64,000 nt of DNA from Myxococcales bacterium (GCA_016703425.1 JADJCA010000011.1:186050-250049); one strand, 5' to 3'. Positions 45,180 to 60,396 are shown, numbered from the stretch's first letter. Numbers and translations: made by a program. Notes: generated by a model from the sequence alone, not told the origin.

Positions 45180-45240
45180 GACGATGCGGGCGAAGTAGCG
45201 GCCGCGGATGCAGCAAGCGCCTCCGCGCCGCGGGGTCGAC

Positions 45241-45426
45241 TTATTTCTTCGACTTCTTCTTGGTCAGCCCCGCACGCTCCGCTTCCTCGCGAATGAGTTG
45301 CCGGACGGCGTCCGTCATCGAGAGCCGCCTCGTCTCCGAGATGCGCTCGAGCTCGCCCCGCTCGTCGAGGCTGAGACGGAGGAAGATCCCCTTCGTGCGG
45401 TGTCGGTCGGGTTGGGCGGCGGGCAT
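45241..45426 (-). CDS. ribbon-helix-helix (CopG/Arc-like) DNA-binding protein
   Basis: MPAAQPDRHRTKGIFLRLSLDERGELERISETRRLSMTDAVRQLIREEAER shows the RHH beta-alpha-alpha pattern. Short 61-aa form chosen. Confidence 0.55.
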   Translation of the reverse strand: MPAAQPDRHRTKGIFLRLSLDERGELERISETRRLSMTDAVRQLIREEAERAGLTKKKSKK

Positions 45427-45565
45427 GTGGCTATCCATGCCTAGCACGCGCTTTCGACAATGGAAACGCTATTTCTGGCGATGCTTTTTCACATCGATGC
45501 GTTCCGTGGAAGGTCGCGGGGTTGCGGGGCCGCGTTCGTGATGCGAATAGGTCTCGCCGAAGCGG

Positions 45566-45985
45566 CTATTGCGCACCGCGTTCGAGGTTGGCCTGAAAGA
45601 CACCGACGACCTTGTCGCGCATCTCGCGTGACGAGATGTCCAAGAGGGACGCGTGCGCCGGCTTGAGTTCCGCGATTTGGCAGTCGTGTGACGAATATCG
45701 GACATCGACGCCGATCTTCCGAAGGGCAGAGGCAGCGAAGCGGGCCACTCCGTACCCCTTCCACGCCGGCTTCGCGGCCTCCAGCGACGCCAGGTCGTTC
45801 GGGAGGCGAGACGCGACATACACCGATGGCCCGTAGTTGCTCGGGGTCGGGGTACCCTCGAATTCCTTCGTCGGAAGCGACGCGGTTTTCACCACTCGTC
45901 CCTCGATATGGGTGGGGTGAATCAGGCGCAACACAGCTTCTTCGTCACCGACCGGCACAAGGTCGGACGCCGGCGGACGAATCAC
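45566..45985 (-). CDS. hypothetical protein (139 aa), GTG start overlapping the upstream stop (GTGA)
   Basis: Protein-like from VIRPPASDLVPVGDEEAVLRLIHPTHIEGRVVKT. The track ORF N-terminal 60 aa is Arg-rich junk. Confidence 0.4.
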   Translation of the reverse strand: MIRPPASDLVPVGDEEAVLRLIHPTHIEGRVVKTASLPTKEFEGTPTPSNYGPSVYVASRLPNDLASLEAAKPAWKGYGVARFAASALRKIGVDVRYSSHDCQIAELKPAHASLLDISSREMRDKVVGVFQANLERGAQ

Positions 45986-46494
45986 TTGCCGCGTCGCTGG
46001 TCGAGCAGCCGGGTTGTACGCAACAGAAGATCGCCAAGCGACGAGAACGTCTCTTCGGTGCGCTCCGACGGGCTCGACGCGGACACGACATGTTTCGCAT
46101 CCCCAAGCTCCGCAAGTACGGTCCGCTCGCCATCGCGCCATTCGAAGTGGATGTACCCATCTCCGCACGGCGAGATCATCGGCCGGGGGACATCGAACAA
46201 CACGACCATCGCGACGAACGAGCGCGCCGATTCCCAGCGTGACGCTGGAAAAGCTTCAGCCCCCTCATCGTCCCATCCCGGCAACCGGGTAACGACCTCG
46301 AGCCGCTTCAGTGTTTCGCGCGCCTCATCAAGCCACGGCTGTCGCCGCGCCGTGCGGGGCCCGGTGGGCTTCGGACGCGCGACTACGGGCAGCGGCGGCG
46401 GCTCCAGCTTACGCTCGACGCCGCTCTCCGGCGGCGGCGGCACGCGCCACCGTTGACCTTGCGTCTGTCGACGGTCGTAGGCGTGTTCGCTCAC
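45982..46494 (-). CDS. hypothetical protein (170 aa)
   Basis: WDDEGAEAFPASRWESARSFVAMVVLFDVPRPMISPCGDGYIHFEWRDGERTVLAELGDAKHVV has good composition. ATGA overlap with the upstream gene. Confidence 0.45.
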   Translation of the reverse strand: MSEHAYDRRQTQGQRWRVPPPPESGVERKLEPPPLPVVARPKPTGPRTARRQPWLDEARETLKRLEVVTRLPGWDDEGAEAFPASRWESARSFVAMVVLFDVPRPMISPCGDGYIHFEWRDGERTVLAELGDAKHVVSASSPSERTEETFSSLGDLLLRTTRLLDQRRGK

Positions 46495-46778
46495 TGAATC
46501 CTCCCTGAGGTTGGGCTTGGCTGAACAAGATCCATGACCATCGCCACGAGTTGGAGGGCCTGCCCTTTGCCCATGATGACCCGCGTCCTCACGAGCGCAG
46601 GTAGCACTTGCTTGCCGCCCTCCTCACGGATGGCTTGCGGCTGCACGGAGCAGAAGTCGAGGTAAACCTCGTCATCCGACGCCGACAGCGCCACATGGTT
46701 CGAGTGGACCTCGGGCAAGTCGCGCGGGTCGGCAGGGTAGATCGGCTTGAACTCCTGGATGTTTATCCGGTCGGCCAC
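46491..46778 (-). CDS. hypothetical protein (95 aa)
   Basis: MADRINIQEFKPIYPADPRDLPEVHSNHVALSASDDEVYLDFCSVQPQAI. First gene of a three-gene translationally coupled cassette. Confidence 0.45.
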   Translation of the reverse strand: MADRINIQEFKPIYPADPRDLPEVHSNHVALSASDDEVYLDFCSVQPQAIREEGGKQVLPALVRTRVIMGKGQALQLVAMVMDLVQPSPTSGRIQ

Positions 46779-46893
46779 GGGGTCTCCTCGGGCGGGAAGA
46801 TATGCGCTCCGGAGGGAACACGCACGTTCGGCGTAGTATGCCCCGCCCGCATGCTCTACGGGGGTTCAGTGGCGCCTTGCTGAGCACCGTCGC

Positions 46894-48003
46894 TCACGCC
46901 CTCACCTTCGACGCGCCGGTGAGGATGACGCCGGTGATCGGAACGGGCGCGAGAAGCACGCTCTCGAATGCGCCCGCCGTTGGTGAAACCCCCGAGAACG
47001 GCGTCCCGGGCGGGATGGTGCACGACACGACATCGCCAACGCGCGCGACCGCTTGGAGGCCGCCGCCGAGCGATAGCTCAGTCACGCCGCCGGCGGCGTC
47101 GAACGAAACAACGCGAGGCTTGGCGGGGTCGCCATTCTTCCAGGTGACACCGACGCGCGTCCCTCGAGGCACCTTCGCGGTCGTGCCCGGGGTGCCGAAG
47201 TCAATCGGGACGCCGGCGAGGTCCGGAAAGCGGGGGTCCTCGAGGTCGAGCTCGAGCGTCCCGTCGGCCGCTTGGAGGATGACGGTCGCGGCGTAGGTGC
47301 CGAAATAGTCGACGTGTGAGACCGCCCGACGGATGAGGGCGTCGAGGGTCGCGCGGTCGCCGACCTCGAGGACCATCGCGGTCCCCTGGTCTCCGACCGA
47401 GGCCGTCGCTCGAGCGACGCGCTCGCCGGCGACCGTCGTGCCCGGGAGGGCCCATCGCCGCACCTCGACGCGCCCGGTCGCGCTGTCGCGGTTGAGGATG
47501 TCGAGGTCGACGAGGCCGGCGTCGGGCCACGTCGGGGCCTTGAGCAGGAGCGATCCCGCCGGGGTCATGCGCCACGCGAGGCCGAGGGAGCGGGCGAGCG
47601 AGGAGAGCGCGAGGGCGGCGTGCGAGCCCTCGCGGGTCCAGTGCTCGAGCTCGACGTCGACGTCGCTCGCGGGGTCGAGTGTCTCGCCTGCCTCCGTTGC
47701 GATGTCATTCGCGACCGTGCGCGCGGAGACGCGGCGATAGTGTCGAGCGGCGAGGACCTTCGGCATGCCGCCGCCACCGCCGACGATGCGAGCCTCGACG
47801 GTGCCGGCAAACGACGCGCCACGGCGCGCGGCGCCGCGGAACGTGCCAACGCCTTCCCACTCGAGCGACACGGCTCCGGCGACGACGGACGCGTCGGAGC
47901 CCTCGACCTCGACGTCGGCCCACCACGCGCCCTCGAGGGGCACGACGAGGCGAGCGCGCACCACACGGGCGCCGTTGAGGGTGACGAGTGAGTTGTTACG
48001 CAT
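46894..48003 (-). CDS. phage tail-associated protein (370 aa) downstream of the tape measure; possibly a distal tail protein
   Basis: Start MRNNSLVTLNGARVVRARLVVPLEGAWWADVEVEG at 48001-48003, overlapping the TMP end. Beta-rich. Function inferred from position only. Confidence 0.45.
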   Translation of the reverse strand: MRNNSLVTLNGARVVRARLVVPLEGAWWADVEVEGSDASVVAGAVSLEWEGVGTFRGAARRGASFAGTVEARIVGGGGGMPKVLAARHYRRVSARTVANDIATEAGETLDPASDVDVELEHWTREGSHAALALSSLARSLGLAWRMTPAGSLLLKAPTWPDAGLVDLDILNRDSATGRVEVRRWALPGTTVAGERVARATASVGDQGTAMVLEVGDRATLDALIRRAVSHVDYFGTYAATVILQAADGTLELDLEDPRFPDLAGVPIDFGTPGTTAKVPRGTRVGVTWKNGDPAKPRVVSFDAAGGVTELSLGGGLQAVARVGDVVSCTIPPGTPFSGVSPTAGAFESVLLAPVPITGVILTGASKVRA

Positions 48004-49792
48004 GACCTGCCTCCAACGCTGATCCCTCAAGTGCGGACGCGAACTCTTCGCCGAGACTTCGGCCGAGTCGGCGGCCGTAGCTCTCCGCGCTCTCGCCCTC
48101 GCGCCGCCCATCGGCATTGACCGTGACGGTGACGTTGTTGGTGCTTCGAGCCCCGGAAGGCCTCCCGAGGTCGTGTGGCGCGGACGCGGAGACGGCGCGC
48201 GGCGCCGTGTCGGCCGCATCGAGGCGCGTCGCGAGGTTCTCGAGGCTGAACGCGTCACTTCCCGCCTGGACCTGGGAGAGCAAGGAACTCTCAGCGCCTC
48301 CGGTCGCGAACTCCGCCGCGCCTGGTCCGGTCTTGATTCCCAGGGCGCTCCTCACCGCGGGCGGGAGCTGGTCAACCAGACTTCCGAGGCGAGAGAGCAA
48401 GCCGGCCCACGCCGACGACAAGCCTTGCCAAATGCCCTCGACGATGTCGGTCCCGACCTTCACGAAACGATCCCAGGACATGCCGAGCTCGAGCGGGAGG
48501 CTCCGCCAGAAGTCGAGGAACTTTTGCCAGCGGTCGACGACCCAACCGGCAGCGGCCGCGACCACGGCGCCGCCGACTACAATCGCGCCGAAGACGAGGC
48601 CGACGACAGTGCCGACGCTCTCGAAGCCGCGTGTGAGGCGGTCGAGGTGGTCGGTGCCGCTGATTCCCAACATGGCGAGGATGTCGGAGAAGCGCTCGAA
48701 GGTTGCGAGCGCTCCCTTCCCGCCGGCGGCTAGCCCATCGATGAAGGCGGCCCCCATCTTCGACAGCGGCTCGAGAACGTCGAGGACGCGCGACAGCCCC
48801 TTCGTCGCGTCGGGGTTCCCGAAGGCGCGCGTGATGGCGTCGCCGATGGTCTCGATGATGCGAACGACGCGGCCCCCCGTGTCGCTCTTTGGGTTTAGGG
48901 CGTTGCCGAGGTCCTCGAGGAACTTCATGCCCCCGCCGCCCTTGAAGTTGGCGGCGGTCACGAGCTCGAAGGGCCTCGACGCGAGCGTCGACGTGAGGCC
49001 GGTCATCGTCTTGGCCATCTTCGCCTGAAGCGAGCCGGCGTTCCCGCCGCTCATTCCGACCGTGATGGCCTCGAGGATGGCGCCGACGCCTTGGTCGGCC
49101 GTGATCTTCCCGGCTTGCTGTAGCTTGTCGAGCTCGTTCCGCGTCTTCCCGAGCGTCTTCCCGAGCGAGTCATAAACGAGCTTTTGCGAGACGCCCGCCT
49201 CCGCGAGCTGCATCATCTCTTCGCCAGAGAGCTTGCCCTTCGCCTTGATTTGGCCGAGCGCGCGAACGACGCTCTCAATGCCCTCTTGACCCTTGAGGAC
49301 GCCGACGTCGCCGACGACGTTGAGGACGTCGAACACCTCGCCCTGCTTGAAGCCGGCGATGAGGAGCTTTTGGATGTTCCCGACGACGTCCTTCGTCGCG
49401 AAGGGTGTCACCGCGGCGAAGTCGACGGCCTTGTTATAGATGTCGGCCGCGGCTTCCTTGGTGCCGAGCATGACCTCGAAGCCGACGAGCGTGTTCTCCT
49501 TGAAGGCGAGCGACTCGGCCGCGAACTTCGCGCCGAGCACAGCGCCGCCGACAGCGACGGCGCCCGCAACAAGGGCGACCGACTTGAGGCCGCCGGCGAC
49601 GTTCTTGAGGAATTCGCCCGAGCCGGAATTTAGTTCCTTGATGCCCTTCGCCGCGCCCGGCATGAATTGCCCTTGGGCGTTGCGGAGGGGGCGCATCGCT
49701 CGATCCAACCCGTCGAGAGAGGCCGTGGCCTTGCGGGCCGGGCCGCTCACGCGGTCGAGGAGCTCGAGGACAAAGGTGAGGGTGTCAGCCAT
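47996..49792 (-). CDS. phage tail tape measure protein
   Basis: 598 aa. Tape-measure domain VVRALGQIKAKGKLSGEEMMQLAEAGVSQKLVYDSLGKTLGKTRNELDKLQQAGKITADQG. Gly/Ala-rich hydrophobic segments. Confidence 0.8.
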   Translation of the reverse strand: MADTLTFVLELLDRVSGPARKATASLDGLDRAMRPLRNAQGQFMPGAAKGIKELNSGSGEFLKNVAGGLKSVALVAGAVAVGGAVLGAKFAAESLAFKENTLVGFEVMLGTKEAAADIYNKAVDFAAVTPFATKDVVGNIQKLLIAGFKQGEVFDVLNVVGDVGVLKGQEGIESVVRALGQIKAKGKLSGEEMMQLAEAGVSQKLVYDSLGKTLGKTRNELDKLQQAGKITADQGVGAILEAITVGMSGGNAGSLQAKMAKTMTGLTSTLASRPFELVTAANFKGGGGMKFLEDLGNALNPKSDTGGRVVRIIETIGDAITRAFGNPDATKGLSRVLDVLEPLSKMGAAFIDGLAAGGKGALATFERFSDILAMLGISGTDHLDRLTRGFESVGTVVGLVFGAIVVGGAVVAAAAGWVVDRWQKFLDFWRSLPLELGMSWDRFVKVGTDIVEGIWQGLSSAWAGLLSRLGSLVDQLPPAVRSALGIKTGPGAAEFATGGAESSLLSQVQAGSDAFSLENLATRLDAADTAPRAVSASAPHDLGRPSGARSTNNVTVTVNADGRREGESAESYGRRLGRSLGEEFASALEGSALEAGHA

Positions 49793-50081
49793 TGCGCGCC
49801 TCCGCGACGTTGAAGATCAGCGCTTCGTCACCGAGCCCGACGAGGCCCACGACGGAGCTGGGGCGTGCGGCGCTCCTCGCGCTCTCGTACCGCTGAGCCA
49901 ACGCTGGCCACTTCTCGCGCAGCTCCCGAAGCAGGTCGCGTGCGAGCACGACCGACGCTTCGCAGTCTTCTCGCACAAGCACGGCGAGACTGGCCGGCCT
50001 GTGCCCTAGCGCCATCATCGCGAACAGCTTCGGTCGAAGCGCTTGCTCCCATCGTTCAAAGTCGGTCGGCGTCGGATTCAT
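49785..50081 (-). CDS. hypothetical phage protein (98 aa)
   Basis: Clean small ORF immediately upstream of the TMP; position suggests a tail assembly chaperone. Confidence 0.4.
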   Translation of the reverse strand: MNPTPTDFERWEQALRPKLFAMMALGHRPASLAVLVREDCEASVVLARDLLRELREKWPALAQRYESARSAARPSSVVGLVGLGDEALIFNVAEARNG

Positions 50082-50094
50082 CGTCGACCTCCCT

Positions 50095-50913
50095 TCACTC
50101 CGCCGCCGTGGGGGGCTCGTTGTTGAATGTCACTGGCGCGAGCCTCTCGACGACCGCCGAGAAGAACGCCGCCGTGGGCTCGCTCTCCCACGGCCACGCG
50201 AACCCTTGCGAGAACCCGACGGCGGGGGCTTCGCGCGGCTGAACCCACGCCCCGAGCCGCATGAAGTTCGGGTCACCGGGCGGAGGCGGCGTCTCGCCTC
50301 GAGCGTGGGCGAGCTCAGCGATGGTGCGCTGACTCAAGTGGAGAGCACGCGCGACGAGCGCCTCGAGCGCGCCGAAGCCGGAGATGTTCGTCTCCCGCGA
50401 TGACGCTCGCAGGTCGAGCGCGTCGGTGGCACCAAGCTCCGTCGCCCGCGTAGCCATGGCATGAAACACGCGTGCCTTCGTCGAGAGCCTCGCGCGTATC
50501 GCCGCGAGGCGGTCGGACAGCTCGGCGACCTCGAGGACATCCTCAGCGACGAGCTCGTCGAACGCCTGCGCCGTCACTTGGGGCGCGAGGATGGCCAGCG
50601 CGGCAGCGTTCGCGTTTGCCGTTGCGAGTTCAAGCGCCCGAGTTGCTTTCGCCACAACCGCACGCTTCCAGCGCGCCATGGCCTCGAGACGGGAGAGCTC
50701 GAGCTCGAGCGGCTCGACGTTCTTGGTCCAGGCCTTTGGGTCGGCCATGTGGGCATCCCTTGCGCGCTCGAGCGCGGCGCGTGCGGCGTCGACCTCGCTG
50801 GCGGCCTGTCGTGCGGCGGTCTCCGCGCCCTCGAGCGCGGCGCGTGCTTCGCGCACCTTCGCCTCGTCGTCGTCGTGGCGCTTCTCTCTGGCGATCGGCG
50901 TGAGCGCGTTCAT
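50095..50913 (-). CDS. hypothetical coiled-coil phage protein (272 aa)
   Basis: Start MNALTPIAREKRHDDDE at 50913. Long Ala/Glu/Arg helical region. The N-terminal 76 codons of the track ORF were rejected. Confidence 0.45.
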   Translation of the reverse strand: MNALTPIAREKRHDDDEAKVREARAALEGAETAARQAASEVDAARAALERARDAHMADPKAWTKNVEPLELELSRLEAMARWKRAVVAKATRALELATANANAAALAILAPQVTAQAFDELVAEDVLEVAELSDRLAAIRARLSTKARVFHAMATRATELGATDALDLRASSRETNISGFGALEALVARALHLSQRTIAELAHARGETPPPPGDPNFMRLGAWVQPREAPAVGFSQGFAWPWESEPTAAFFSAVVERLAPVTFNNEPPTAAE

Positions 50914-51122
50914 GAGCGGGGCTCCTTGACTTGGGGGGCCTTCATGTCCGCGAGGGCGCGTTCCGTTTCCGCATCCTCGTGTGACGTGGCGAGATGGCAG
51001 AGGACGGCGAAACGACGGAGGCCTTCCCCAACGGTCCGCGCGCCGGTGGCGGACCTCAGCACGTCGTGAACGAGCCCAACGCGCTGCGCAGCCTGCTCGG
51101 CGGTCATGGCGGGAGTTCCCAT
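50910..51122 (-). CDS. hypothetical small phage protein (70 aa)
   Basis: ATGA overlap downstream and TGATG overlap upstream. Confidence 0.35.
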   Translation of the reverse strand: MGTPAMTAEQAAQRVGLVHDVLRSATGARTVGEGLRRFAVLCHLATSHEDAETERALADMKAPQVKEPRS

Positions 51123-51616
51123 CAGAGCACCCCTTCGTCAATCATCCGTTTTTGCGTGGCGACGTAGACGTCGGCCGACAGGCCGAGAACCCTCAGCGTC
51201 GCCTCGTCGGGGACGTCGATGGTGCGCGCGCCGTGGTGAACGACGCGCGTCGCCGGTGACGCGCTTTCGCGCTGAAGCGTTGCTACCTGCCGCTCGAGCG
51301 GCACCGGATGAAGCGTGCCGTCGGCGATCTGCTTCCGCTGTACCTCGATGAACTCGTCGCGCGTCATGCCGAGGAGCCGCAGGGTCGCGGCGGGAGGCAC
51401 TTCGACGCCGTCGGCGGTGAAGGTGGTTCGGTCGTTGGTGTTCATGGTTTGGGCTCTTTCTTCTGTCGGCACGAAGGGCGCCGAGTGGTTTGAGGGTGGG
51501 CCAGCGGGTGAGCGTGAAGCGGGGCCGTCGTCGCCGGATGACGGCGAGAGCACGATGGGAATGAAGAGAGCGTCGACGACGACCGTGCCCTCGACGTTGA
51601 AGCGTCGGTCGGTCAT
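51122..51616 (-). CDS. hypothetical phage protein with internal duplicated 26-aa motif
   Basis: ATLRLLGMTRDEFIEVQRKQIADGTL and ATLRVLGLSADVYVATQKRMIDEGVL. Start ATG overlaps the TerL stop (ATGA). Confidence 0.4.
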   Translation of the reverse strand: MTDRRFNVEGTVVVDALFIPIVLSPSSGDDGPASRSPAGPPSNHSAPFVPTEERAQTMNTNDRTTFTADGVEVPPAATLRLLGMTRDEFIEVQRKQIADGTLHPVPLERQVATLQRESASPATRVVHHGARTIDVPDEATLRVLGLSADVYVATQKRMIDEGVL

Positions 51617-53058
51617 AGGGATCGGTCTCCTCCGTTGGTTCCGCCCTCTCCGTCGACGAAACGGAGGGAGTGATCGCGGTCGTCGTCAGAAGCATCATCG
51701 ATGGCCAGAAGCGGCCCCCACTTGTCGTGAGCACCACGGAGGGACTGACTGAAGGCCTGGCCGATGCCGGTCATACGGAGCGGCGACGACGCGAAGGCAC
51801 CCGGGGAAGCGGCGAACGCGCCGGCAAGCGCATCGACCTGGTCGTCGTGCACGTCGCCGGCCCCGGTGAACGAGACGATCTCGCTCACGAACGCGTCGAG
51901 CCACGGGGCCGAGTTCGGCAGGAGCACGCGACCCGCATTCCACTTCGCGGCCACGGGCTGGGCTCGGGTGAACTTGTCCCCAATGGCAGGCCGGGCGTCG
52001 ATGCTGAGGCCTTGGCTTCGCATCATGTCGACGGTCCCCTTCTCCGTGCCACTCACGAACGCCGTAGCCCGCGCGCCGCCCCATCGATCGCGAAGGCCCT
52101 TGAGCGCGCCCATGAACTCGGGAGCGCGCACTTGCAGACGAAGCACCTCAAGCACGAAGTGAAGCGAGTCGCGGCCGCGGCCCGTCGTGCCGAGGACAAC
52201 GGCGACGGAGTAGTCGGCCCGCGTCTTCGTCGAATAGGCGAGGTCGACGCCAATTCGCACGTCGAGGCCATCGCGCGGAGGCGCGGCGTCGAAGACGTGA
52301 ACGTCTTGGAACAAGGCGCCGCCGCGGGGCATCGGCTGCCCCTGGTAGAGCGACGCCCATCCGTACGCGCCAATCTGCTCTTGGATGGCCCGAAGGCGCT
52401 CGACAGAGAACCGCTCGGGCCAGAGGGCACGGCCATGACCGTCGATTGCGGGGAGGCACACGTTCGCCCATCCGTCGCGGATGAGAGAGCCGGCCAGGTC
52501 GTCGGGATGCCACCGCGTTTGAATGACAATCGCGGAGCCGTTGGGCTCGAGCCGGGTGAAGGCGACGTCGTCGAACCACTCGCGCGTCTGTTGACGGCGG
52601 AGCGAGCTCTCCGCTTCGACGCGGTCCTTTACCGGGTCGTCGACGAGGAGGACGTCGAAGCCCTCGCCAGTGATGCCGCCGCCAATGCTCGTCGCCCACA
52701 CCCCGCCGTCCTCGACGCCCGTGCGCCAGTCGTGCTTGGACGCGGAATCCTCGGAGACGGTGACGTGTGCCGCGATGGCGAGCTCACGGGCCTTGCGGGA
52801 CTTCTTCTCGGCGAGCCGCTGGGCATAGCTCACATACGCGATCTGGGCGTCGGGCCGCTGTAAGAGCCACCAAGGGATCGCGTGGAGTACAGACTCCGTC
52901 TTCGCGTGGCGCGGAGGCACCGACACGACAGCGCGAACGGGCTCGACGAGGGCGCGCTCAAGGACCTCGAGGAACGGGCGAAGGTGCGTCGGCGCGACGT
53001 AGCGCGGCGAGAGAAGCGGAATGAACCGCTCAAGCGAAGCGATGCGGCGGGCCTTCAC
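51613..53058 (-). CDS. phage terminase large subunit (GTA/PBSX-type family)
   Basis: P-loop-like VSVPPRHAKTE, Walker B LLVDDP, TRWHPDDL, nuclease motifs GVDLAYS and HDDQVDAL. Confidence 0.85.
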   Translation of the reverse strand: MKARRIASLERFIPLLSPRYVAPTHLRPFLEVLERALVEPVRAVVSVPPRHAKTESVLHAIPWWLLQRPDAQIAYVSYAQRLAEKKSRKARELAIAAHVTVSEDSASKHDWRTGVEDGGVWATSIGGGITGEGFDVLLVDDPVKDRVEAESSLRRQQTREWFDDVAFTRLEPNGSAIVIQTRWHPDDLAGSLIRDGWANVCLPAIDGHGRALWPERFSVERLRAIQEQIGAYGWASLYQGQPMPRGGALFQDVHVFDAAPPRDGLDVRIGVDLAYSTKTRADYSVAVVLGTTGRGRDSLHFVLEVLRLQVRAPEFMGALKGLRDRWGGARATAFVSGTEKGTVDMMRSQGLSIDARPAIGDKFTRAQPVAAKWNAGRVLLPNSAPWLDAFVSEIVSFTGAGDVHDDQVDALAGAFAASPGAFASSPLRMTGIGQAFSQSLRGAHDKWGPLLAIDDASDDDRDHSLRFVDGEGGTNGGDRSL

Positions 53059-53633
53059 GGCTTCCCCTCCGTTTCGCCACTCGTCGCCTCAAACCATGGC
53101 GGGAGCGCACCGCCGTGCGTGGCCTTGCGCGCCTGCGCCTCGCGCACCGCGAGCTCGTAAGCCGCCAACAGGTTCTGCCGGCTAGCGTTCGCTAGCTGGC
53201 TCGCAGTCTGAAGCGTGGCCGCGTCGCCGCTGACCGCACCGCGCGCGAACAGGAAGCGCGAACTCGCAAGCTGAAGGGCGGCGCTGGCCACCATGGTCGA
53301 CGGGCCCGGACCACATGTGCCACCGGCCTGAAGCGCGAGCGCTTCGACGTGGCTGCGAAAAAACTCGTCGGCGGCGACCTGGAACGGGCGGAAGTCCGAC
53401 TCGGCGGCGAGCTCAGCGAGGCCAAGCCCAGCCACGAGGCGCGCCTTGTAGGCCTTCTTGAAGCCCCCCAGGGAGCCCAGGCGCTTGGCGGACTCTGGAT
53501 CGGCGACCGTGCCATCCCGGCGACGACGCACCGGCTCCGGCACACCCGGCACCGGCGCCGGAAGCTCGTCGGGCGGCAAGACCTCGATGCGGGGCACGCC
53601 CGCTCCGTTTCCGTGGCCAGTGCGAAGTGTCAT
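53055..53633 (-). CDS. hypothetical protein; position suggests the terminase small subunit
   Basis: Start MTLRTGHGNGAGVPRIEVLPP at 53633. Stop overlaps the TerL start. No motif recognised. Confidence 0.4.
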   Translation of the reverse strand: MTLRTGHGNGAGVPRIEVLPPDELPAPVPGVPEPVRRRRDGTVADPESAKRLGSLGGFKKAYKARLVAGLGLAELAAESDFRPFQVAADEFFRSHVEALALQAGGTCGPGPSTMVASAALQLASSRFLFARGAVSGDAATLQTASQLANASRQNLLAAYELAVREAQARKATHGGALPPWFEATSGETEGKP

Positions 53634-53938
53634 CAATGCCTCCGCGCATCGATGCGCTCGACGGGCAACCACCAAAGGCCCGCGTCGTCGTCGGCGACGA
53701 CGAAGACGGGGAGCGAGCGCGGACGGCGCGCGCCGAGATGTCGGGCGTAGCTGTCGAAACCGGCCGAACGAAGCCAACCGATGAACTCAGCGCGGGGAAG
53801 CACGCGAACGCCCTCGGGTTCGGCGCTGTCGATGTAGCAGGCGAGCGTCTCGACCGCGGCGCCGCGTCGCATGAAGGCTGCGAGCTGCCGCCGGAGCGAA
53901 GCGAGACGGGCGACGGCCAGGTGGGGACCCGTGGTCAT
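53633..53938 (-). CDS. hypothetical small phage protein (101 aa)
   Basis: MTTGPHLAVARLASLRRQLAAFMRRGAAVETLACYIDSAEPEGVRVLPRAEFIGWLRSAGFDSYARHLG. ATGA overlap downstream. Confidence 0.35.
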   Translation of the reverse strand: MTTGPHLAVARLASLRRQLAAFMRRGAAVETLACYIDSAEPEGVRVLPRAEFIGWLRSAGFDSYARHLGARRPRSLPVFVVADDDAGLWWLPVERIDARRH

Positions 53939-53972
53939 CGTCGCGCCTCCACACCAGCGCAACGGGCGGCGG

Positions 53973-54293
53973 TCACGGCCAAAGCTCCTTCTCGAGCCGT
54001 TGGCGAAGGGCCTTGAGACGGAACCGGTCGCCAGCCCCAGGCTTCTCGAGCTCGAGCCAATCCTCGACCCGCGCGAGCGCGACCGACATGGCTTCCCGCG
54101 CGCGGCGCCTCGTCCCGAAGTCGGCGGGCGTGAACCCCGAGGCGCGGTAGCGCTCCGTGACACGTAGACGCGTCTCGGCGGCCAGGACGGCCCGGAGTAC
54201 CTCCGGCCATGCGATCGGCGTTCCTGGCGAGGGGGTCGACTTTTGCGAGCTTGTTTTCTCGAGGCGCCGTGAGGGCGCCGGATCGGTGTTCAT
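53973..54293 (-). CDS. hypothetical small phage protein (106 aa)
   Basis: MNTDPAPSRRLEKTSSQKSTPSPGTPIAWPEVLRAVLAAETRLRVTERYRASGFTPADFG. Confidence 0.35.
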   Translation of the reverse strand: MNTDPAPSRRLEKTSSQKSTPSPGTPIAWPEVLRAVLAAETRLRVTERYRASGFTPADFGTRRRAREAMSVALARVEDWLELEKPGAGDRFRLKALRQRLEKELWP

Positions 54294-54575
54294 GCTGCCC
54301 TCCGTCGCGGTGACGCGGGGGAGGCCCGGACCGCATGTAAGTGCTCGAAAGCTCGTCGCCCGGGGAAGAGCAGGCCACCGGAGCAGCCGCAAAGCGGCCG
54401 CCGGTGAGCCGGCTAGCCTCGGTTCCTCGACGCCGCAGCGGACTGCTCATCCGGTGAATCCGGCTGAAACGACCCTCCCCGCTTGGCACGAACGTGAGCC
54501 AGAGCAGGCCAAGTGCAGAATGCACGGGTTTACTGAAGCCAGATTCCGGGGCTCCCGTGACTTGTGCCACCGGGC

Positions 54576-56198
54576 TCATTGCGCGACTCCTTCCACGAGG
54601 AGGTCGTCGAAGAAGCCCGGCTCGTCTTCCGTGGGGGTGTGGGGACGCGTGAGGTCCGGATCCCGGTTAGGCCGATCATGTGGAACTTCGTCTTGGGAAC
54701 TAACCGGAACATGGTCACCACAGGACCCCACGTCCCCAACGGCTCGAAGCCCCGAGGTCCGCTCGGCCTCCGACAGGAGGCGTACTCCGCGCCAAGCGTC
54801 CAGGAACTTCGCGCCGTCGCGCTTGGTGGCGTCGGTGACTCCTTGTTCCCTGAGCTTTGCCGCGAACTTCTTCGCGTCCACTGGTCGGAAACCGTTCTCT
54901 TCGCACCACTCCGTGTAGACTGCACGAAGTAGCTTGCGGGTCTCAACGTCGCCGCGTGCACCGAAGACGCACCGGAGCCGGAAGAACTCGCCCACGAGGT
55001 CGCTCTCGTCGCGGTAGTCGGCCGTCGCCTTGGTCACCTCGGGAGGCTCACCGAGGCCACTGGCCTGCCACTCGAGACAACCGCGGACAGCCCACGCGAG
55101 GATGCCCGGCAGCTCCTCGCGCAGCTTGTCTACGAGGAGCGGATCGCGCTCGGCGGCGGGGATCGTCACGGTCCACGGGATGAGCCGTATGCGCCGCCAG
55201 ATCCCCTCATCGTCGCCGCGAACGCTCGGCCGATGGTTGCCCGCGATGAAGAGCTTGTGTGAGGCGCGAAGGACCAGAAGTCTTCCGACATGCGGCGAGC
55301 GCTGATTTCGTCGCCCCCGGTGAGGTCCTTCACGAGGCCCTCGTCGAAGGCACGGCCCTCTTCGATTTCGGCGCAGGCCACGAAGCGCGCCCCGAAGAGC
55401 ACCGTTAGCTCCGTCGGGTGTCGCTCCCCTCGAGAGCGAAAAAGGAGCCCGCGCGGGGCCGTGACGGCGTAGTCGCCCATCATGGCGCGCGTCGTCGCGA
55501 TGTACGTCGACTTGCCGTTGGCGCCGCCACCGAACAGGAAGCCGAGAACGTGCTCGCGGATGACGCCCGTCAGGGCGTAGCCCGCCATGCGCCGGAGGAA
55601 GGCGATCATTCCCGCGTTGGCGCCCATCGCGCGCCCGAGAAACGCATCCCACGCCGGGCACTTTGCTCTCGGGTCGTAGGCCACCGGTGAGAGCTTCGTG
55701 ATGAGGTCGTCGCGACTGTGGGCGCGGAGCTTGCCGCTGCGTAGGTCCAGGGTTCCGTTCGCCACGTTGAGGAGCCACGGATCGGCGTCGAGCCGGTCGT
55801 GCGTGACAGCCACGGCCTCATCGGCGCGGGCGAGATCAACCATCGCGTGGAGGCGCGGAGCGGCCTGCGACTTCAGCGCCCACTTCCAACCATCTTCGGC
55901 CGAGCGGTGCCGCTTCTCAGCGCGTCGCTTCGCCTTGTCGTCGTCGCGGCCGACCTGCTCGAGTTCGGCCATCGCCGCCGTGACAGCGCCGCGCGCGTCA
56001 CTGGCCATGGTGCGCGCGGTGTCGGCCGCGAGTCGTAGCGCCGCGTCGGTCTCGTCGAGTCGCCACCGGCGGCCGTCATAGACGAGCCAGCGCGACCACT
56101 TCGCGACGTGACGAACGTCGGCCCCGTGGAGCTCCACGAAGCGTTCAGCGTTGCGGAGGTCGGTGCCTTCGATGGTGAGCCGACTCATGACGCGCGCC
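54576..56198 (-). pseudogene. P4/D5-family primase-helicase (helicase/NTPase domain), interrupted by a frameshift near 55268-55276
   Basis: Frame A: MSRLTIEGTD...LGFLFGGGANGKSTYIATTRAMMGDYAV (Walker A)...ISARRMSEDFWSF. Frame B continues HKLFIAGNHRPSVRGDDEGIWRRIRLIPWTVTIPAAERDPLLVDKLREELPGILAWAVRG, the canonical P4-family continuation. The frames differ by one nt within a CACACA run. Confidence 0.7.
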
Positions 56199-57015
56199 TC
56201 CCCTCGAGGAGGGCGCCGTGCGGCATCGTCCCGCGCTCGCGCGCTTGCCGAACCTTTCGCCGAAGCTCGTGCTCGGACCACGGCGGGGAGCACGACTTGT
56301 TCCAATTACGGAGAAGCTCCAGCGACTCTCCGTCGGAAAGCCCGAATCCCCTCACGAGACGTTGGGCGACGACGAACGTATGGGCGTGCCCGTTGGCGCC
56401 CGAGATCGCGGGGGCAATCTTCTCGAGGTAGCGGCGCGCCCGATCAAACGCGTCCGGCGACGATGGCGATGCGGGGGCGCACGGCGCCGGCTCGACGCTG
56501 CGCCGAGTGGCCAGCTCCACAAGCCAGGCGGGCGCCTTGGCGATGGGTGTCCCAGGGGGCGAGTCCCACGCATAGCTTGCCGCGGTCACGCTCGGAGCAA
56601 CGAGGATGTAGCGCCTCGCGAACCCCTGCTCGTCGGCGCCGTGCAAGAAGTCGAGTCCCGGCCCGAGCTTGCCGCGGCAGTCGACGCCGCTTGGCATGAG
56701 AAACAAGTGATGCGCGCCGCCGCCGCCCGTGCGCGCGGTCTTGGTTGCGGGGAGCGGGCCATGCGCCTCGAGGATGCGCGCGAGCGTCTTGTCGCCCCCG
56801 CTCCGAGGGTCGACGTCGAGGACGGCAAGGGGCGGCGTGACCGCTATCGCGAGATTCGCGGACGGCCATCGTCGCGCCCACTCTTCGATGCGCGGCTCGA
56901 GCCGAGTGGCGTCCTTGACGCCGTGCTTCAGGAGCGGACGCTTCCCGCCCGGTTCGACGGGGAGAACGAAGAAGCCGAAACGCGCGTAACGCAGCGCGGC
57001 GACGAACCAGTTCAT
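56185..57015 (-). CDS. bifunctional DNA primase/polymerase (Prim-Pol) N-terminal domain plus PriCT-like C-terminal domain
   Basis: MNWFVAALRYARFGFFVLPVEPGGKRPLLKHGVKDAT is the Prim-Pol signature. HHLFLMPSGVDC follows. C-terminal HAHTFVVAQRLVRGFGLSDGESLELLRNWN. Stop overlaps the helicase start. Confidence 0.7.
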   Translation of the reverse strand: MNWFVAALRYARFGFFVLPVEPGGKRPLLKHGVKDATRLEPRIEEWARRWPSANLAIAVTPPLAVLDVDPRSGGDKTLARILEAHGPLPATKTARTGGGGAHHLFLMPSGVDCRGKLGPGLDFLHGADEQGFARRYILVAPSVTAASYAWDSPPGTPIAKAPAWLVELATRRSVEPAPCAPASPSSPDAFDRARRYLEKIAPAISGANGHAHTFVVAQRLVRGFGLSDGESLELLRNWNKSCSPPWSEHELRRKVRQARERGTMPHGALLEGRRAS

Positions 57016-57461
57016 GCCGCGGCTCCGCTCTTCGTGAGCTCGAGCTCTTCCCAGCGCGAGAGAATTCCGAAGGCCAGCCGAGCCGCGACCTCGGGATTCT
57101 CGGCGAAGAGAACGGGGCACGCATGGCGACCGACGAGGGAGGCGACGGTCCCGAGAATCGCGTTCGGATGAATGCGCCCGCGAAGCTCGACGAGGTCCGA
57201 GAGCTTCGCCTCGACAATGATGGCCCGACGCTCGAGAGAGGCGAGGCGCTCGAGCTGCCGGTCACGCCGCTCGGCGTCAAAGAACGTTCCCAGGAAATCC
57301 GCGGGCGCCTTCCTCTCTACTGCCGCGCGAGGCGCGAGGATGGGCGTCGAGTAGTCGCCCGCGGGCAACGCGACGCGGACGATCTCGACGATGTCGCCGA
57401 ACGTCCAAGGCGTTTGCTCGCGCGTGTCGACGACGACGGCGCGAAGGAGGTGGGGCATCAC
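57012..57461 (-). CDS. ERCC4/XPF-Mus81-type nuclease domain protein
   Basis: VVVDTREQ...LPAGDY...VERKAPADF is the ERCC4 catalytic signature (D..E...GDY...ERK..D). ATGA overlap with Prim-Pol. Confidence 0.6.
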   Translation of the reverse strand: MMPHLLRAVVVDTREQTPWTFGDIVEIVRVALPAGDYSTPILAPRAAVERKAPADFLGTFFDAERRDRQLERLASLERRAIIVEAKLSDLVELRGRIHPNAILGTVASLVGRHACPVLFAENPEVAARLAFGILSRWEELELTKSGAAA

Positions 57462-57646
57462 CGGACCTCCGCGGTCGAGGCCACCGCGCGGGACAGGTCG
57501 AGGCGTCGCTCGAGGAGCGCTATGCGCTCCTCAATGGCGTCGGCGAACTCGACGTGCCCTTCACCGTCGACCACGAAGAACGCGGCGCGGAGCGATGCCA
57601 GTTCGGCGCGGATGTCGAACCCGAAGAACGCGACATCGACCCTCAT
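57458..57646 (-). CDS. hypothetical small protein (62 aa)
   Basis: MRVDVAFFGFDIRAELASLRAAFFVVDGEGHVEFADAIEERIALLERRLD. ATGA overlaps on both sides. Confidence 0.3.
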   Translation of the reverse strand: MRVDVAFFGFDIRAELASLRAAFFVVDGEGHVEFADAIEERIALLERRLDLSRAVASTAEVR

Positions 57647-57996
57647 CGCCCGCCTCCCGCGACCTTGGTCGCCCCGAGCTCCGCGAGCACGTCGGCGAAG
57701 GCGTCGCGCGGGCCACTCGCTGGCGCCGCTGGCGCTTTCGCTTGAGGCTCGGCGGCATGGGCCGCGAGCCAAGCGTCGAGGTCCTCGCGACGCACAAGGA
57801 CCCGCTTGCCGGCTTTTACCGCGGGCAGCTCGCCCGAGCGAACGAGCCGAAGGTGCTTCGACTTGCCGAGAGGCGATGCATGCTGGTCTACGAGCTCGGG
57901 CGGCGGGGTCACCTCTGCGACGAGGGTGCCGCACACTTCGAGCAAGCCAGCGCGCCGCCGACAACGACCGCCACGATTGCACCGGTGCACTCGCAC
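57643..57996 (-). CDS. excisionase-family helix-turn-helix DNA-binding protein; start uncertain
   Basis: ASPLGKSKHLRLVRSGELPAVKAGKRVLVRREDLDAWLAAH matches the Xis/MerR-type HTH pattern LGVSRSTIYRLVRRGELPA.KIGRRWRFRREDLDAWL. Confidence 0.6.
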   Translation of the reverse strand: MRVHRCNRGGRCRRRAGLLEVCGTLVAEVTPPPELVDQHASPLGKSKHLRLVRSGELPAVKAGKRVLVRREDLDAWLAAHAAEPQAKAPAAPASGPRDAFADVLAELGATKVAGGGR

Positions 57997-58379
57997 GTGA
58001 GCCTCACGGCGCCCGCAGCCTTGATGTTATTCCGTATCGATGTAGAGTTCATGGGTCCTCGTTGGTGTCGAGGGCTCGGAGGCGTCGGGGGTCGAGTCCC
58101 GGCGCCTTCGGCGTTTGTGGTTTAGGCCGCTCGTTCACTCGCGGGCGGCAGGCCGGCGGGAGGGGCGAGACCGAGCTCGGTCATCGCGGCGGCAAGCTTC
58201 TGGCCGGCCCGGCCGCGAACAGCGTGAGCGCCTTCGGTGAGCGCTTTGGCGGCGGAGCGTGGGTCCACGTCCGCGGCGGCAGCGAGCTTGAGGACTGCGA
58301 TTCGGTCGGCGGTGCCCATGGCGAGCACAGTGGGCGCCATGCGGCTCGAATCAAAACAGCTTGCCGGCGGCCGGCATTG

Positions 58380-59396
58380 CTAACGCTTTTTGAGACGTCG
58401 TGATTTCTCGACCCGAAGCGCCGCCGGGGTAGTGCGCGGCATCTCGAGACGTTCAGCCATCACTTCAATGATCGCGCGTTCGATTTCGCCAGCGGCCGAG
58501 GGCACCCCGTCGAGGGCTCCCGATCGCCTCGGTGGCCGGCCACGCCGAACCTTCACGCGCAACACGCGGCGGATCGCTTCCAGCCCGATCTTGCGGGCCT
58601 CCTCGAGAAAAGGCCCCCCCGCGCCGATGTGGTTCAGCACAGCTCTCGCGGCCCGTTCCTCGTCGTGCACGCCATCCCGGTGAGATTGCCGAACCGCCTC
58701 GAGGAACCGCTGCCGAACCTGCGTGAGACGCCGTTCGCGCGGGCGGAACCAAGATCGCGTGGACGCTACGAACGCGCTCAAGCTCCTCGAGAGCGGGCAG
58801 GGTGTCGATCGGCCCATCCACGCGAGCCTCGAGGTCTTCGAGCCATCGTCGAAGGCTGGGCAGCATTCGGGCGATCTCGCCGGCCCGAAGGAGTTCGACG
58901 GTTGTGCGGCGCGCCGCCTCGTCGGACGCCACGCCCTCGCGCTTCGCGCGTTCCTCCACGGGCGTCGAGCCCGCGCTCGACGCGGCTCGCTTGGAAGTCA
59001 CCTCGCGCGCCTTCCGCTCTTTCGCCATCGCCCTTGCCCCCGCACCGGGAATGGTATCGCTCCACACAAGAGAAAGCGCGGCGCTCACGCATCACCCCGC
59101 GCACCGCGGGGTCCGCCTCGAGCTCGGCGACACGGGCCCCGAGGGCGCCCGCGATGGCTTCGTGCGCGGCGAGAAGGAGCTTCAGCTTCGATTGGGTGAG
59201 GAGGACGAGGTCGGCCACCGTGCCATCGTTGACGTTCTCGGACTCGTGCACGGCGCCGATGGCGTCGACGAGGCTCTCGACTTCGGCAAACGCGCCGGCG
59301 ACATCCCCCCGAATAGGAGACGGCCCGCCTCAGCGAAATGGGCGCCTCGAGGGCAACGGTCTCGAGTTCGAGCGCGCAGGTCGTACTGGTCTTCAT
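58380..59396 (-). pseudogene. hypothetical phage gene of about 335 aa, readable only by joining three frames at homopolymer runs (59305-59310, 59037-59041, 58736-58745)
   Basis: MKTSTTCALELETVALEAPISLRRAVSYSG / DVAGAFAEVESLVDAIGAVHESENVNDGTVADLVLLTQSKLKLLLAAHEAIAGALGARVAELEADPAVRGVMRERRAF / AMAKERKAREVTSKRAASS...ELERVRSVHAILVPPAR / ERRLTQVRQRFLEAVRQSHRDGVHDEE...RVEKSRRLKKR. Each junction sits at a C/G homopolymer or GCGCGC run. Confidence 0.35.
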
Positions 59397-59475
59397 GGTC
59401 GGATCGCTTTCTGCGGCGTCGTAGGCCGCCGTCGACGTCCCTCCACGGAGAGGCGCCGAAGGCGGACCACGCCGC

Positions 59476-59709
59476 CTATCCCGACCGCCCCTTTCGCCTC
59501 GCCGTCGCGAGGTCGGCCACGCCTTCGCGCGCGAGCCTCCTTGCCTTGAGCTCCTCGGCCACTTGTGCGACGACATCGAAGCGACCCGCCGCCGTCGCTG
59601 CTTCGAGCGCCCTCGCGAGACCCTCCTCGACGCGGTCCCCGAACGTGGCTGCGCTTTGCGGCTGCTCACCGACCGGCAGCTCGCTACCGACGGCAACACG
59701 GTTGGCCAT
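59476..59709 (-). CDS. hypothetical small protein (77 aa) at the attR-proximal end
   Basis: MANRVAVGSELPVGEQPQSAATFGDRVEEGLARALEAATAAGRFDVVAQVAEELKARRLAREG. Confidence 0.3.
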   Translation of the reverse strand: MANRVAVGSELPVGEQPQSAATFGDRVEEGLARALEAATAAGRFDVVAQVAEELKARRLAREGVADLATARRKGRSG

Positions 59710-59758
59710 CTTCCGGATATCGTTAGCGTCGACTCCCGATGCGTCGTCCTCCGAGGGC

Positions 59759-59812
59759 TTTAGGTTCCGCCGCCGCAAGGCGTGGGGGTTCAAGTCCCTT
59801 CCCGTGCACTTC
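59759..59812. repeat. attR core: 54-bp direct repeat, a partial tRNA-Leu 3-prime half
   Basis: Identical to 43891-43944. No 5-prime tRNA half is present here, so this is an integration scar and not a second tRNA gene. Confidence 0.85.
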
Positions 59813-59838
59813 CCTTGAGGCAACTCAGCCCGACACGC

Positions 59839-60396
59839 TCACTGCAAGAGCACGTCGACCCTTCGATCCATCATCCAGCCCATCTCATCGGTGCCCGTGG
59901 CGTCGAGCTTGCCGCGGGACGTCTCGAGAAGGCTCCCGTCGGGAACGCCGAGGCGCCCCAGGTAGTCGCGCACGCTGCTCGCGCGACGCTCGCCTAGCGC
60001 CATGTTGTATTCAACTTCGCCGCGCGGATCGGCGCGGCCCACCAGCGTGAGACGACGCCCTTGGAGCGGGCCCGTCGTGACACACGTCGCGATCTGAGAG
60101 AGCACGTCGCCGTCTTGCGAGGCGAGGACGCTCTCGTCGAAGGCGAACTTCGGCGCCGTGCCGACATCGTTGAAGTGCAGATTGCACACTCTGGCGATCT
60201 CCTCCGAGACGTTGAGGTTCGGCGAGACCGGCTCAACCTTCGGCGGGACCACGAGCTTCGCCGACGTGAAGACCGGCGCCTCCACGACCGGCACCACCGC
60301 TTTCGGGCTCGCACAACCCGCTACGACGGCGAACGACATCGCCACGCCCCACGCAACCGACCCACTCGATGAATTGTTGAACATGTTCCGTTCCAA
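59839..60396 (-). CDS. OmpA/Pal-family peptidoglycan-associated lipoprotein
   Basis: Lipobox FAVVAGCASP. OmpA C-terminal-like motif LVGRADPRGEVEYNMALGERRASSVRDYL. Confidence 0.8.
   Translation of the reverse strand: MERNMFNNSSSGSVAWGVAMSFAVVAGCASPKAVVPVVEAPVFTSAKLVVPPKVEPVSPNLNVSEEIARVCNLHFNDVGTAPKFAFDESVLASQDGDVLSQIATCVTTGPLQGRRLTLVGRADPRGEVEYNMALGERRASSVRDYLGRLGVPDGSLLETSRGKLDATGTDEMGWMMDRRVDVLLQ

Follow-up and report, generated by a model that had tools for sequence, protein, structure and literature searches.

A Prim-Pol domain and a helicase are joined in a single protein in pRN1 ORF904, NrS-1 gp28 and poxvirus D5. The alpha protein of phage P4 (NC_001609) likewise unites several functions, namely primase, helicase and origin binding, in one polypeptide composed of the domains Zn_Ribbon_Prim, Toprim_3, D5_N, DUF5906 and Pox_D5. 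A different fusion is that of Hef, in which a helicase is joined to an ERCC4-type nuclease domain; the nuclease domains of Hef (1J22-1J25) and of XPF from Aeropyrum pernix (2BGW/2BHN) carry the active site GDXnERKX3D. Short proteins made of the ERCC4 domain alone (PHROG 3490) are encoded by the haloarchaeal viruses HSTV-2, HRTV, HJTV and HCTV, and an ERCC4-type nuclease, ORF14 of Bacillus phage vB_BteM-A9Y, has been listed together with a P4-family primase among the replication and repair genes (PMC10535572). We found no biochemical characterisation of PHROG 3490-type ERCC4 proteins, and no characterised nuclease-only ERCC4 member from phages or mobile elements. Here we analyse a stretch of 64,000 nucleotides from a metagenome-assembled Myxococcales genome (GCA_016703425.1, JADJCA010000011.1:186050-250049; 68% GC; hereafter the window), in which an ERCC4 nuclease, a Prim-Pol and a D5/P4-family helicase are encoded by adjoining genes of a 15.9-kb element inserted at a tRNA-Leu gene.

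Five consecutive genes are read on the minus strand from 57912 to 54576, and they are translationally coupled, the junctions being, in gene order, ATGA, TGATG (or GTGA), ATGA and ATGA. They encode an excisionase/AlpA-like helix-turn-helix (HTH) protein of 89 aa (Xis-like, 57643-57912), a 62-aa product of unassigned function (57458-57646), a stand-alone ERCC4 nuclease domain of the XPF/Mus81/Hef type (57012-57461), an AEP-type Prim-Pol primase/polymerase of 276 aa with a PriCT-1-like C-terminal domain (56185-57015), and a D5_N plus superfamily 3 (SF3) helicase of the P4/D5 family (54576-56188), which measures 537 aa once a frameshift is repaired. We consider it probable that this is the early excision and replication operon of a phage-like element integrated in the tRNA-Leu gene. 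An annotation made previously without database searches (the sequence-only reading) had described 54576-57996 as a module of Prim-Pol, D5/P4 helicase, ERCC4 nuclease and excisionase-like HTH genes with overlapping start and stop codons. Profile searches bear out all four domain calls, the overlaps are present at every junction, and the Prim-Pol gene has exactly the boundaries that had been proposed. On the other hand, the 62-aa open reading frame (ORF) between the Xis-like and ERCC4 genes had been overlooked, the start of the Xis-like gene had probably been placed too far upstream, at 57996, and the tRNA-Leu-integrated element to which these genes belong had been missed. In sequence, the ERCC4 protein is identical to MBK6694814.1, the Prim-Pol to MBK6694813.1 and the N-terminal helicase product to MBK6694812.1.

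The ERCC4 protein, which has 148 aa if the ATG at 57458 is its start codon and 149 aa if the start is the GTG at 57461, matches PF02732 (E 1e-12, 48.4 bits against a cut-off of 24) and phrog_3490, 'ERCC4-type nuclease'. A profile of its family aligns over nearly the full length with the nuclease domain of Pyrococcus furiosus Hef (1J22-1J25; E 2e-19) and also with Aeropyrum XPF (E ~1e-9). Its AlphaFold2 model (mean pLDDT 95.2) was superposed by Foldseek on 1J22 with a target-normalised TM-score of 0.79 at 30% identity, as well as on A. pernix XPF (2BGW) and the nuclease domains of Mus81 and FANCM. The protein retains the signature of catalysis, GDXnERKX3D, in the form GDY...VERKAPAD, a VVVDTRE motif is also present, and residues D12, R14, E15, D36, E49, R50, K51 and E84 are invariant among 29 homologues. 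Fold and active site are therefore the same as in the Hef and XPF domains; unlike those proteins, the window protein is bacterial, borne on a mobile genetic element, and spanned from end to end by the ~148-aa nuclease domain, with no fused helicase and with scores far under the equivalog cut-offs (Hef, 48.6 against 610; Xpf, 20.9 against 300). The adjacency of the ERCC4 and helicase genes mirrors the fused helicase-nuclease of Hef. Identity to the short haloviral proteins, which resemble it in consisting of the ERCC4 domain only, is ~28-38%, and in HSTV-2 the neighbour of the ERCC4 gene is a XerC/D-like recombinase and not a helicase as in the window. The best inference from family biochemistry and gene neighbourhood is that the ERCC4 protein acts as a structure-specific endonuclease on branched replication intermediates. 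By analogy, its role would equal that of the RusA, RuvC and EndoVII-type resolvases of other phage replication modules, none of which was detected in the element with Pfam or PHROGs.

ERCC4-family nucleases had been called unusual phage cargo in the sequence-only reading. This is true of sequenced isolates, since tblastn found relatives in just 48 of 50,697 GenBank phage records, all of them haloarchaeal tailed viruses, and fails for uncultured sequences: the family has its own PHROG, and a profile search of 1.84 billion cluster representatives returned 1,170 at E<=1e-30 and 5,966 at E<=1e-10. Nearly all of the best 150 representatives are 140-200 aa long. When eight genomic contexts were examined, six had a replicative helicase or primase no more than three genes away from the ERCC4 relative, which was often start/stop-coupled to the downstream gene, and two had no helicase nearby. 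The window gene order is shared by two metagenomic contigs, L013 and L014 (helicase identity to the window, 56%), which carry an HTH_17 gene or small ORFs, an ORF of 62-68 aa, the ERCC4 gene, a PriCT-bearing protein of 286-298 aa and the D5 helicase. In Sorangium sp. So ce315 (L001), Xis and ERCC4 homologues, each with 46% identity, come before a DnaB-type helicase gene that overlaps by 4 nt, and in other contigs the ERCC4 gene stands directly 5' of a RecD2-like helicase and an AEP-TOTE primase, or near a VapE/DUF5906 helicase. By these neighbourhoods the ERCC4 gene is an exchangeable accessory of early replication and recombination regions, tied to no single type of helicase.

The Prim-Pol protein, named 'bifunctional DNA primase/polymerase' by NCBI, covers the whole of PF09250 (profile 1-158/158; E 1e-31, 110.9 bits against a cut-off of 22.8) and shows a motif-I-like LDVD and a GGGAHH motif. 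Its C-terminal 115 aa match PriCT_1 weakly (13.3 bits, cut-off 21.1); this region is 44% identical to the L014 homologue, which itself scores 23.4 bits. In L013 (2789-3649) and L014 (9108-10004) a PriCT-1-like C-terminal domain is likewise retained by the protein encoded between ERCC4 and helicase, and its N-terminal ~170 aa have no Pfam match. An LDFD motif in this N-terminal part aligns with the LDVD of the Prim-Pol, and the N-terminus may be a divergent or a different primase domain. L014 also carries a PC4-like protein of 76 aa (E 3e-5) at this spot.

The helicase carries the Walker A motif GGGANGKST and matches D5_N (E 1e-37; E 6e-38 for the N-terminal part) and phrog_6088 (E 7e-130); relatives occur in 855 sequenced phage records. 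Once repaired, it covers TIGR01613, the C-terminal region of P4-family phage/plasmid primases, in full (1-304/304; 306.9 bits, cut-off 108.7), and its coverage of DUF5906 rises from 1-94/114 to 1-114/114. The sequence-only reading took the two genes for a P4 alpha-like primase-helicase encoded in two parts. That is correct for the helicase, which shares with alpha the D5_N and DUF5906 (SF3 P-loop) core and membership of TIGR01613, and aligns by BLASTP with alpha residues 413-743 only (26% identity, E 2e-10); no Pox_D5 domain was detected in it. It is incorrect for the primase, which in alpha is of the Zn-ribbon plus Toprim type and in the window an unrelated AEP Prim-Pol with no similarity to alpha (best E 3.1), so that the label 'split P4 alpha' is half right. 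The P4 left operon (Vis/ORF88...alpha...int) resembles that of the window in having an HTH_17/AlpA-type gene at its head, in ending with a replication protein and in the presence of an integrase in the same element. The two differ in that P4 encodes its primase, helicase and origin binding in one polypeptide and the window has two genes, in the ori/crr iterons of P4, and in the terminase and tape-measure-like genes, both of which are absent from P4.

The true single-polypeptide counterparts are Prim-Pol-PriCT-D5_N-SF3 helicase proteins of ~820-920 aa. Fused Prim-Pol-(PriCT)-D5_N-SF3 proteins are found in phrog_1156, phrog_2478 and phrog_6088, in the metagenomic proteins P0114 and P0105, and as the 'DNA primase/polymerase' of mycobacteriophages such as Taquito; all of these are one polypeptide, in contrast to the separate coupled genes of the window. 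On phrog_1156 (855 positions) the Prim-Pol matches 13-200 and the helicase 364-834. P0114 (821 aa) is colinear with both genes, its N-terminus being 38% identical to the Prim-Pol and its C-terminus 58% to the helicase, and in P0122 a segment 41% identical to the Prim-Pol C-terminal domain stands directly before the helicase part. Of 70 IMG/VR loci that hold a related helicase, ~14 have the Prim-Pol as an ORF of its own upstream and eight have a fused gene; the best 120 helicase matches are mostly stand-alone proteins of 490-580 aa. The window pair is thus the unfused form of a protein that is single in some relatives, and both forms are common.

The Xis-like protein, at the head of the operon, matches HTH_17 (E 5e-9, 36.8 bits, cut-off 27), the excisionase family TIGR01764 (E 8e-10, 38.9 bits, cut-off 28.8) and the excisionase PHROGs phrog_66 and phrog_1840; the 46%-identical protein of the Sorangium element is likewise an HTH_17 protein. 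An excisionase/AlpA-type HTH above threshold is therefore present in an element that also carries an integrase and att repeats. An in-frame GTG lies upstream at 57996, and in that longer ORF the HTH begins at about residue 31. The GTG at 57912 is the more likely start, because the HTH lies ~30 residues in and because the intervening DNA holds a perfect 12-bp palindrome (TGCACCGGTGCA, 57978-57989; inverted repeat I10) just upstream. The non-coding stretch 57913-58111 is probably the promoter/operator region of the operon, with the palindrome as a candidate operator and a GC-rich hairpin with a 15-bp stem (58076-58111), between the preceding 72-aa ORF and the Xis-like gene, as a candidate terminator. 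The 62-aa ORF is coupled on both sides, its ATG overlapping the Xis stop (ATGA) after a GGGAGG Shine-Dalgarno sequence, and it has no match in Pfam, PHROG, NCBIfam or PADLOC. ORFs of 62-68 aa hold the same position in L013 and L014, and no sequence likeness to them was found. It shares ELASLRAAF with the N-terminal domain of the 286-aa protein of L013 (37% over 51 aa; E 1e-5 in a tiny database), which may be a chance likeness between Ala/Leu/Arg-rich proteins or possibly a vestige of module exchange.

The element that carries the operon spans 43891-59812 (15.9 kb) between 54-bp direct repeats at 43891-43944 and 59759-59812, identical at 54 of 54 positions. ARAGORN and Rfam place a tRNA-Leu gene at 43859-43941 (plus strand), of which the left copy of the repeat (attL) is the 3' part, so that gene and attL together take up 43859-43944, and the right copy is attR; an Rfam scan of the whole window found tRNA only. 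All genes of the element are read on the minus strand. The helicase gene is followed by two or three unassigned ORFs, a putative small terminase subunit (TerS) assigned from its position (53055-53777), the large terminase subunit (TerL, 51613-53058; Terminase_6C and Terminase_6N, phrog_38 at E 3.5e-81), three small or coiled-coil ORFs, a tape-measure-like protein of 598 aa (47996-49792; TMP_3 at E 8e-18, phrog_12798), a protein of ~360-450 aa, small ORFs and a tyrosine integrase (Int, 43854-45179; Phage_integrase at E 1e-16, phrog_1) that adjoins the tRNA. In the integrated form the integrase has 441 aa, its tail is encoded across attL and the tRNA, and the attachment core sits within its reading frame. 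When the ends are joined as in an excised circle (43854-45179 with 59476-59823), the reconstructed ORF encodes 523 aa. The extra C-terminus, which now lies beside attR, aligns with that of a 536-aa relative (L014), along which the reconstructed form covers residues 79-523 and the integrated form 79-380. Myxophage Mx8 has likewise been described with attP inside its integrase gene (PMC6070905).

Portal, protease, major capsid and tail-tube families were found by Pfam and PHROGs neither anywhere in the element nor, specifically, between TerL (51613) and the tape-measure-like gene (49792), which means that the element is either a deletion remnant or satellite-like. In favour of a satellite are an integrase, an AlpA/Xis protein, a replication module of its own, a length of 15.9 kb in a class of ~10-18 kb and the lack of capsid, portal and tail-tube genes, this last being negative evidence. 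No relatives of the P4 satellite markers psu, delta and sid were found with PHROGs, and the TerL and tape-measure-like genes are atypical for P4 and for classical phage-inducible chromosomal islands. A parallel is offered by Virus Rctr16k (GenBank KX853514, L088; 16,739 bp, 67.8% GC), which is of the same size class and whose genes match those of the window element in order and in size: an Xis-like gene, the replication module, a TerS-like gene, the terminase, three small genes, the TMP_3 gene, one for a ~420-aa protein, further small genes and the integrase. Identities between the two are 52% for Int, 38% for Xis, 30% for the tape-measure protein, 29% for the ~420-aa protein and 31% for the TerS-like protein. 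They differ in that Rctr16k carries a Mu-like_Pro protein after TerL and, as its replication module, an IstB/DnaC-like ATPase with an HTH_36 protein where the window has ERCC4, Prim-Pol and D5 helicase, which indicates that the window module is an exchangeable cassette. The recurrence of this compact order and size in the independent Rctr16k points to a conserved design and argues against random decay.

Integrase relatives were also seen in more compact elements on the metagenome contigs L149 (1119-5050), L150 (932-4878) and L158 (701-6196). Their integrases are 46-53% identical to that of the window, and those of L149 and L150 are 57-58% identical to that of Rctr16k. Both L149 and L150 consist of Xis (51-53%), Prim-Pol (43%), ~2 kb and then Int, and L158 has a TerS-like gene, TerL, ~2.4 kb and then Int. 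Such arrangements suggest that small elements defined by this integrase form a diverse group whose modules can be exchanged and, like the differing replication module of Rctr16k, they favour a conserved design. Two other sources were considered and rejected: TerL relatives in IMG/VR share only TerL with the element and look like ordinary phages, and the helicase-match contig L085 (16,113 bp), a candidate member of a ~16-kb element family, is a normal phage fragment with portal, protease and major capsid protein (MCP) genes, which has the same coupled Prim-Pol/helicase pair. The idea of a ~16-kb family would thus survive only through the separate comparison with Rctr16k.

Several observations weigh against reading 54576-57912 as a working early operon with ERCC4 as a replication component. 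The helicase gene is broken as the sequence stands, so that the module may not function. The ERCC4 protein has no (HhH)2 domain, with which XPF and Hef bind DNA, and its role has been deduced from family biochemistry and gene neighbourhood only. Only one of the 70 IMG/VR loci had an ERCC4 gene within 7 kb, and the locus of the closest helicase (L012) has neither ERCC4 nor an upstream Prim-Pol; absent from 69 of the 70 loci and from L012, ERCC4 is an accessory that the D5/SF3 helicase does not require. No sigma-70 or other promoter consensus was found upstream of the operon, and no origin or iteron family in 53700-59820; a search for origin iterons, promoters and terminators in 53000-60000 gave only the 12-bp palindrome and the one hairpin upstream of the Xis-like gene.

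The sequence-only reading had located a frameshift in the helicase gene, in a CACACA run, and alignment with an intact homologous gene confirms it. The N-terminal frame, MSRL...EDFWSFAP, stops at 55166, and the remainder, (S/T)HKLFIAGNHRP...GVAQ, is read in another frame from 55262 to 54576; adding one base after GCGCC restores the 537-aa protein. The site (55256-55264, minus strand) lacks one base between the codons for ...FAP and (T/S)HKLF. In the DNA alignment with the gene in L012 encoding P0051, an unbroken protein of 545 aa that is 83% identical and the closest helicase relative among 5.8 billion proteins, every gap is a multiple of three except one of a single base (TTCGCGCC-TCACACAAG against TTCGCGCCGACGCACAAG in the homologue), which falls at 55262/55263, where the CACACA run has its 5' edge. 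The present sequence is GCGCCTCACACAAG, and the intact form, one base longer, would read GCGCCNTCACAC or CCTACACAC. Residues P309, H311 and K312 are invariant in 24 homologues. All motifs are present, and the 1-nt deletion falls between Walker B (269-274) and motif C (LFIAGN, 313-318), cutting off Walker A/B (221-274) from motif C and WRRI (313-334). Since the break precedes motif C, the product annotated by NCBI (MBK6694812, 340 aa) would have neither motif C nor the arginine finger; should the deletion be genuine, a module with such a helicase would be predicted to be unable to replicate itself. Because the lesion is confined to this one sequence, and the frame beyond it is open and conserved, it is either very recent or an error of assembly; a genuine deletion and an assembly error are equally possible.

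That the frameshift is an assembly or consensus error of the metagenome-assembled genome (MAG), and the module fully functional, is a serious possibility that we place a little short of an even chance. The gap is a single nucleotide where a C-rich stretch meets a CA repeat, the closest homologue is intact, no stops follow, and the part past the frameshift is highly conserved. The source is a MAG, and its locus-tag series is presumably one of long-read activated-sludge MAGs, in which residual indels are common. A screen of the 64-kb window for other frame switches speaks, at most weakly, against an error: it gave no convincing second case and none that splits a recognisable domain, so that nothing nearby points to frequent indel errors; an ABC_tran and FtsX/MacB pair taken at first for a second frameshift proved to be two intact genes, and the remaining candidate pairs have no Pfam domains.

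Alternatively, the module would belong to a decaying remnant, a prophage from which the head and tail genes are already gone and the replication genes are now being lost, the frameshift being genuine. The loss of SF3 motif C and the arginine finger from the helicase fits this explanation, as does the absence of portal, protease, capsid and tail-tube genes from an element whose closest TerL relatives, like L085, carry portal, protease and MCP genes after TerL. Decay would nevertheless have left a single lesion, with all other ORFs open, the coupling overlaps intact and the att repeats identical throughout; the part of the helicase past the frameshift is free of stops and better conserved than the part before it (87% against 80% identity to P0051), and the compact order and size recur in the 16.7-kb Rctr16k. 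We therefore judge a remnant rather unlikely. The sequence-only reading had held that the frameshift together with other inactivating lesions would mean a dead module; no second inactivating lesion is found in the module.

It is improbable that the ERCC4 gene is cargo for anti-phage defence or for degradation of host DNA and not a replication accessory. Mobile elements often carry nucleases as defence cargo, and the link of ERCC4 to this helicase family is sporadic; yet PADLOC gave no match for ERCC4, its neighbours or any other protein of the module, the gene lies within a coupled early operon and not in a cargo hotspot, and in most of the contexts examined a replicative helicase or primase is close by, often coupled. 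Programmed frameshifting (+1 ribosomal or transcriptional slippage) yielding two helicase isoforms, for which only the position in a short CA repeat speaks, was rejected as scarcely credible, since none of 23 aligned homologues, the 83%-identical one included, needs a shift here, the site has no slippery homopolymer, re-pairing from CCU to CUC would be non-cognate, and the zero-frame product would lack essential SF3 motifs.

From the gene identities, active-site motifs, coupling, boundaries and conserved gene order that we observe, a course of events can be proposed for the early operon, in which every activity, and the functionality of the helicase, is predicted. Upon induction, transcription would start from the AT-richer stretch upstream of 57912, and the HTH_17 protein, as an excisionase and/or AlpA-like activator, would act with the tyrosine integrase to excise the element across the 54-bp att repeats. 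The D5_N/SF3 helicase would then assemble at a putative origin and unwind the DNA, and the separate AEP Prim-Pol with its PriCT-1-like tail would lay primers. The ERCC4 protein, probably a homodimer like the Hef nuclease domain, would cut forks, 3' flaps and nicked junctions, and thereby either turn theta intermediates into concatemer-producing forms or debranch DNA ahead of packaging by the terminase. The element's own terminase would package the product, presumably in the capsids of another phage.

Two wider readings follow together, and we offer them jointly as a tentative proposal, possible rather than probable: that ERCC4 nucleases of ~150 aa are a widespread replisome accessory of mobile genetic elements, and that the host element belongs to an undescribed satellite-like class of ~16-17 kb. 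As to the first, at least 1,170 clusters at 50% identity (E<=1e-30) may pair with any helicase (D5/SF3, DnaB, RecD2-like or VapE) as a bacterial 'split Hef' fork-processing pair. As to the second, the class may inhabit GC-rich soil and sludge bacteria, with the window element and Virus Rctr16k as exemplars, and may be defined by its own terminase, the retention of scaffold/protease-like and tape-measure-like genes, the lack of capsid genes and an attP within the integrase gene.

Some neighbouring features remain to be described. An ORF at 53935-54579, whose ATG overlaps the stop codon of the helicase gene, has poor coding statistics and a GC content at third codon positions of 0.63. The ~180 nt past the helicase stop (54392-54576) have no clear coding frame and locally lower GC; they may not encode a protein and might instead be, for instance, an origin or a regulatory region, and repeats sought there were not found. 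Between the tail-like genes and the integrase, a 170-aa ORF (45982-46494, minus strand) partially matches the PADLOC candidate PDC-M32A (E 3e-6, profile 260-338/375) and may represent defence cargo at the end of the element near the integrase. The stretch 39929-43729 (plus strand), immediately before the tRNA-Leu gene, encodes a protein of 1,266 aa with a signal-peptide-like N-terminus and ~7 tandem repeats (RLFEDG..LGPAHS.H..IR..G.GRFSHW...L.FSSSDG.DPR.NGR.Y), which is host cargo with no relation to the element. A scan of genome contigs with the helicase as query yielded nothing closer than a locus of 39% identity in Acetobacteraceae, besides distant matches in Clostridia, and a scan of viral contigs with the ~450-aa protein that follows the tape-measure gene gave none.

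This is for the most part an ordinary mobile-element replication module, every assignable part of which falls in a known family, and its value lies chiefly in correct annotation: of the two proteins listed as hypothetical, MBK6694812 is a D5/P4-family helicase with a frameshift and MBK6694814 an ERCC4 nuclease, and the locus is a clean, bounded insertion at tRNA-Leu. Beyond this, the recurring position of ERCC4 genes beside unrelated replicative helicases predicts that these nucleases process forks or branches during the replication or packaging of mobile genetic elements, and the ~16-kb element, which has a terminase but lacks capsid genes, may represent a type of phage satellite in Myxococcota-like hosts.

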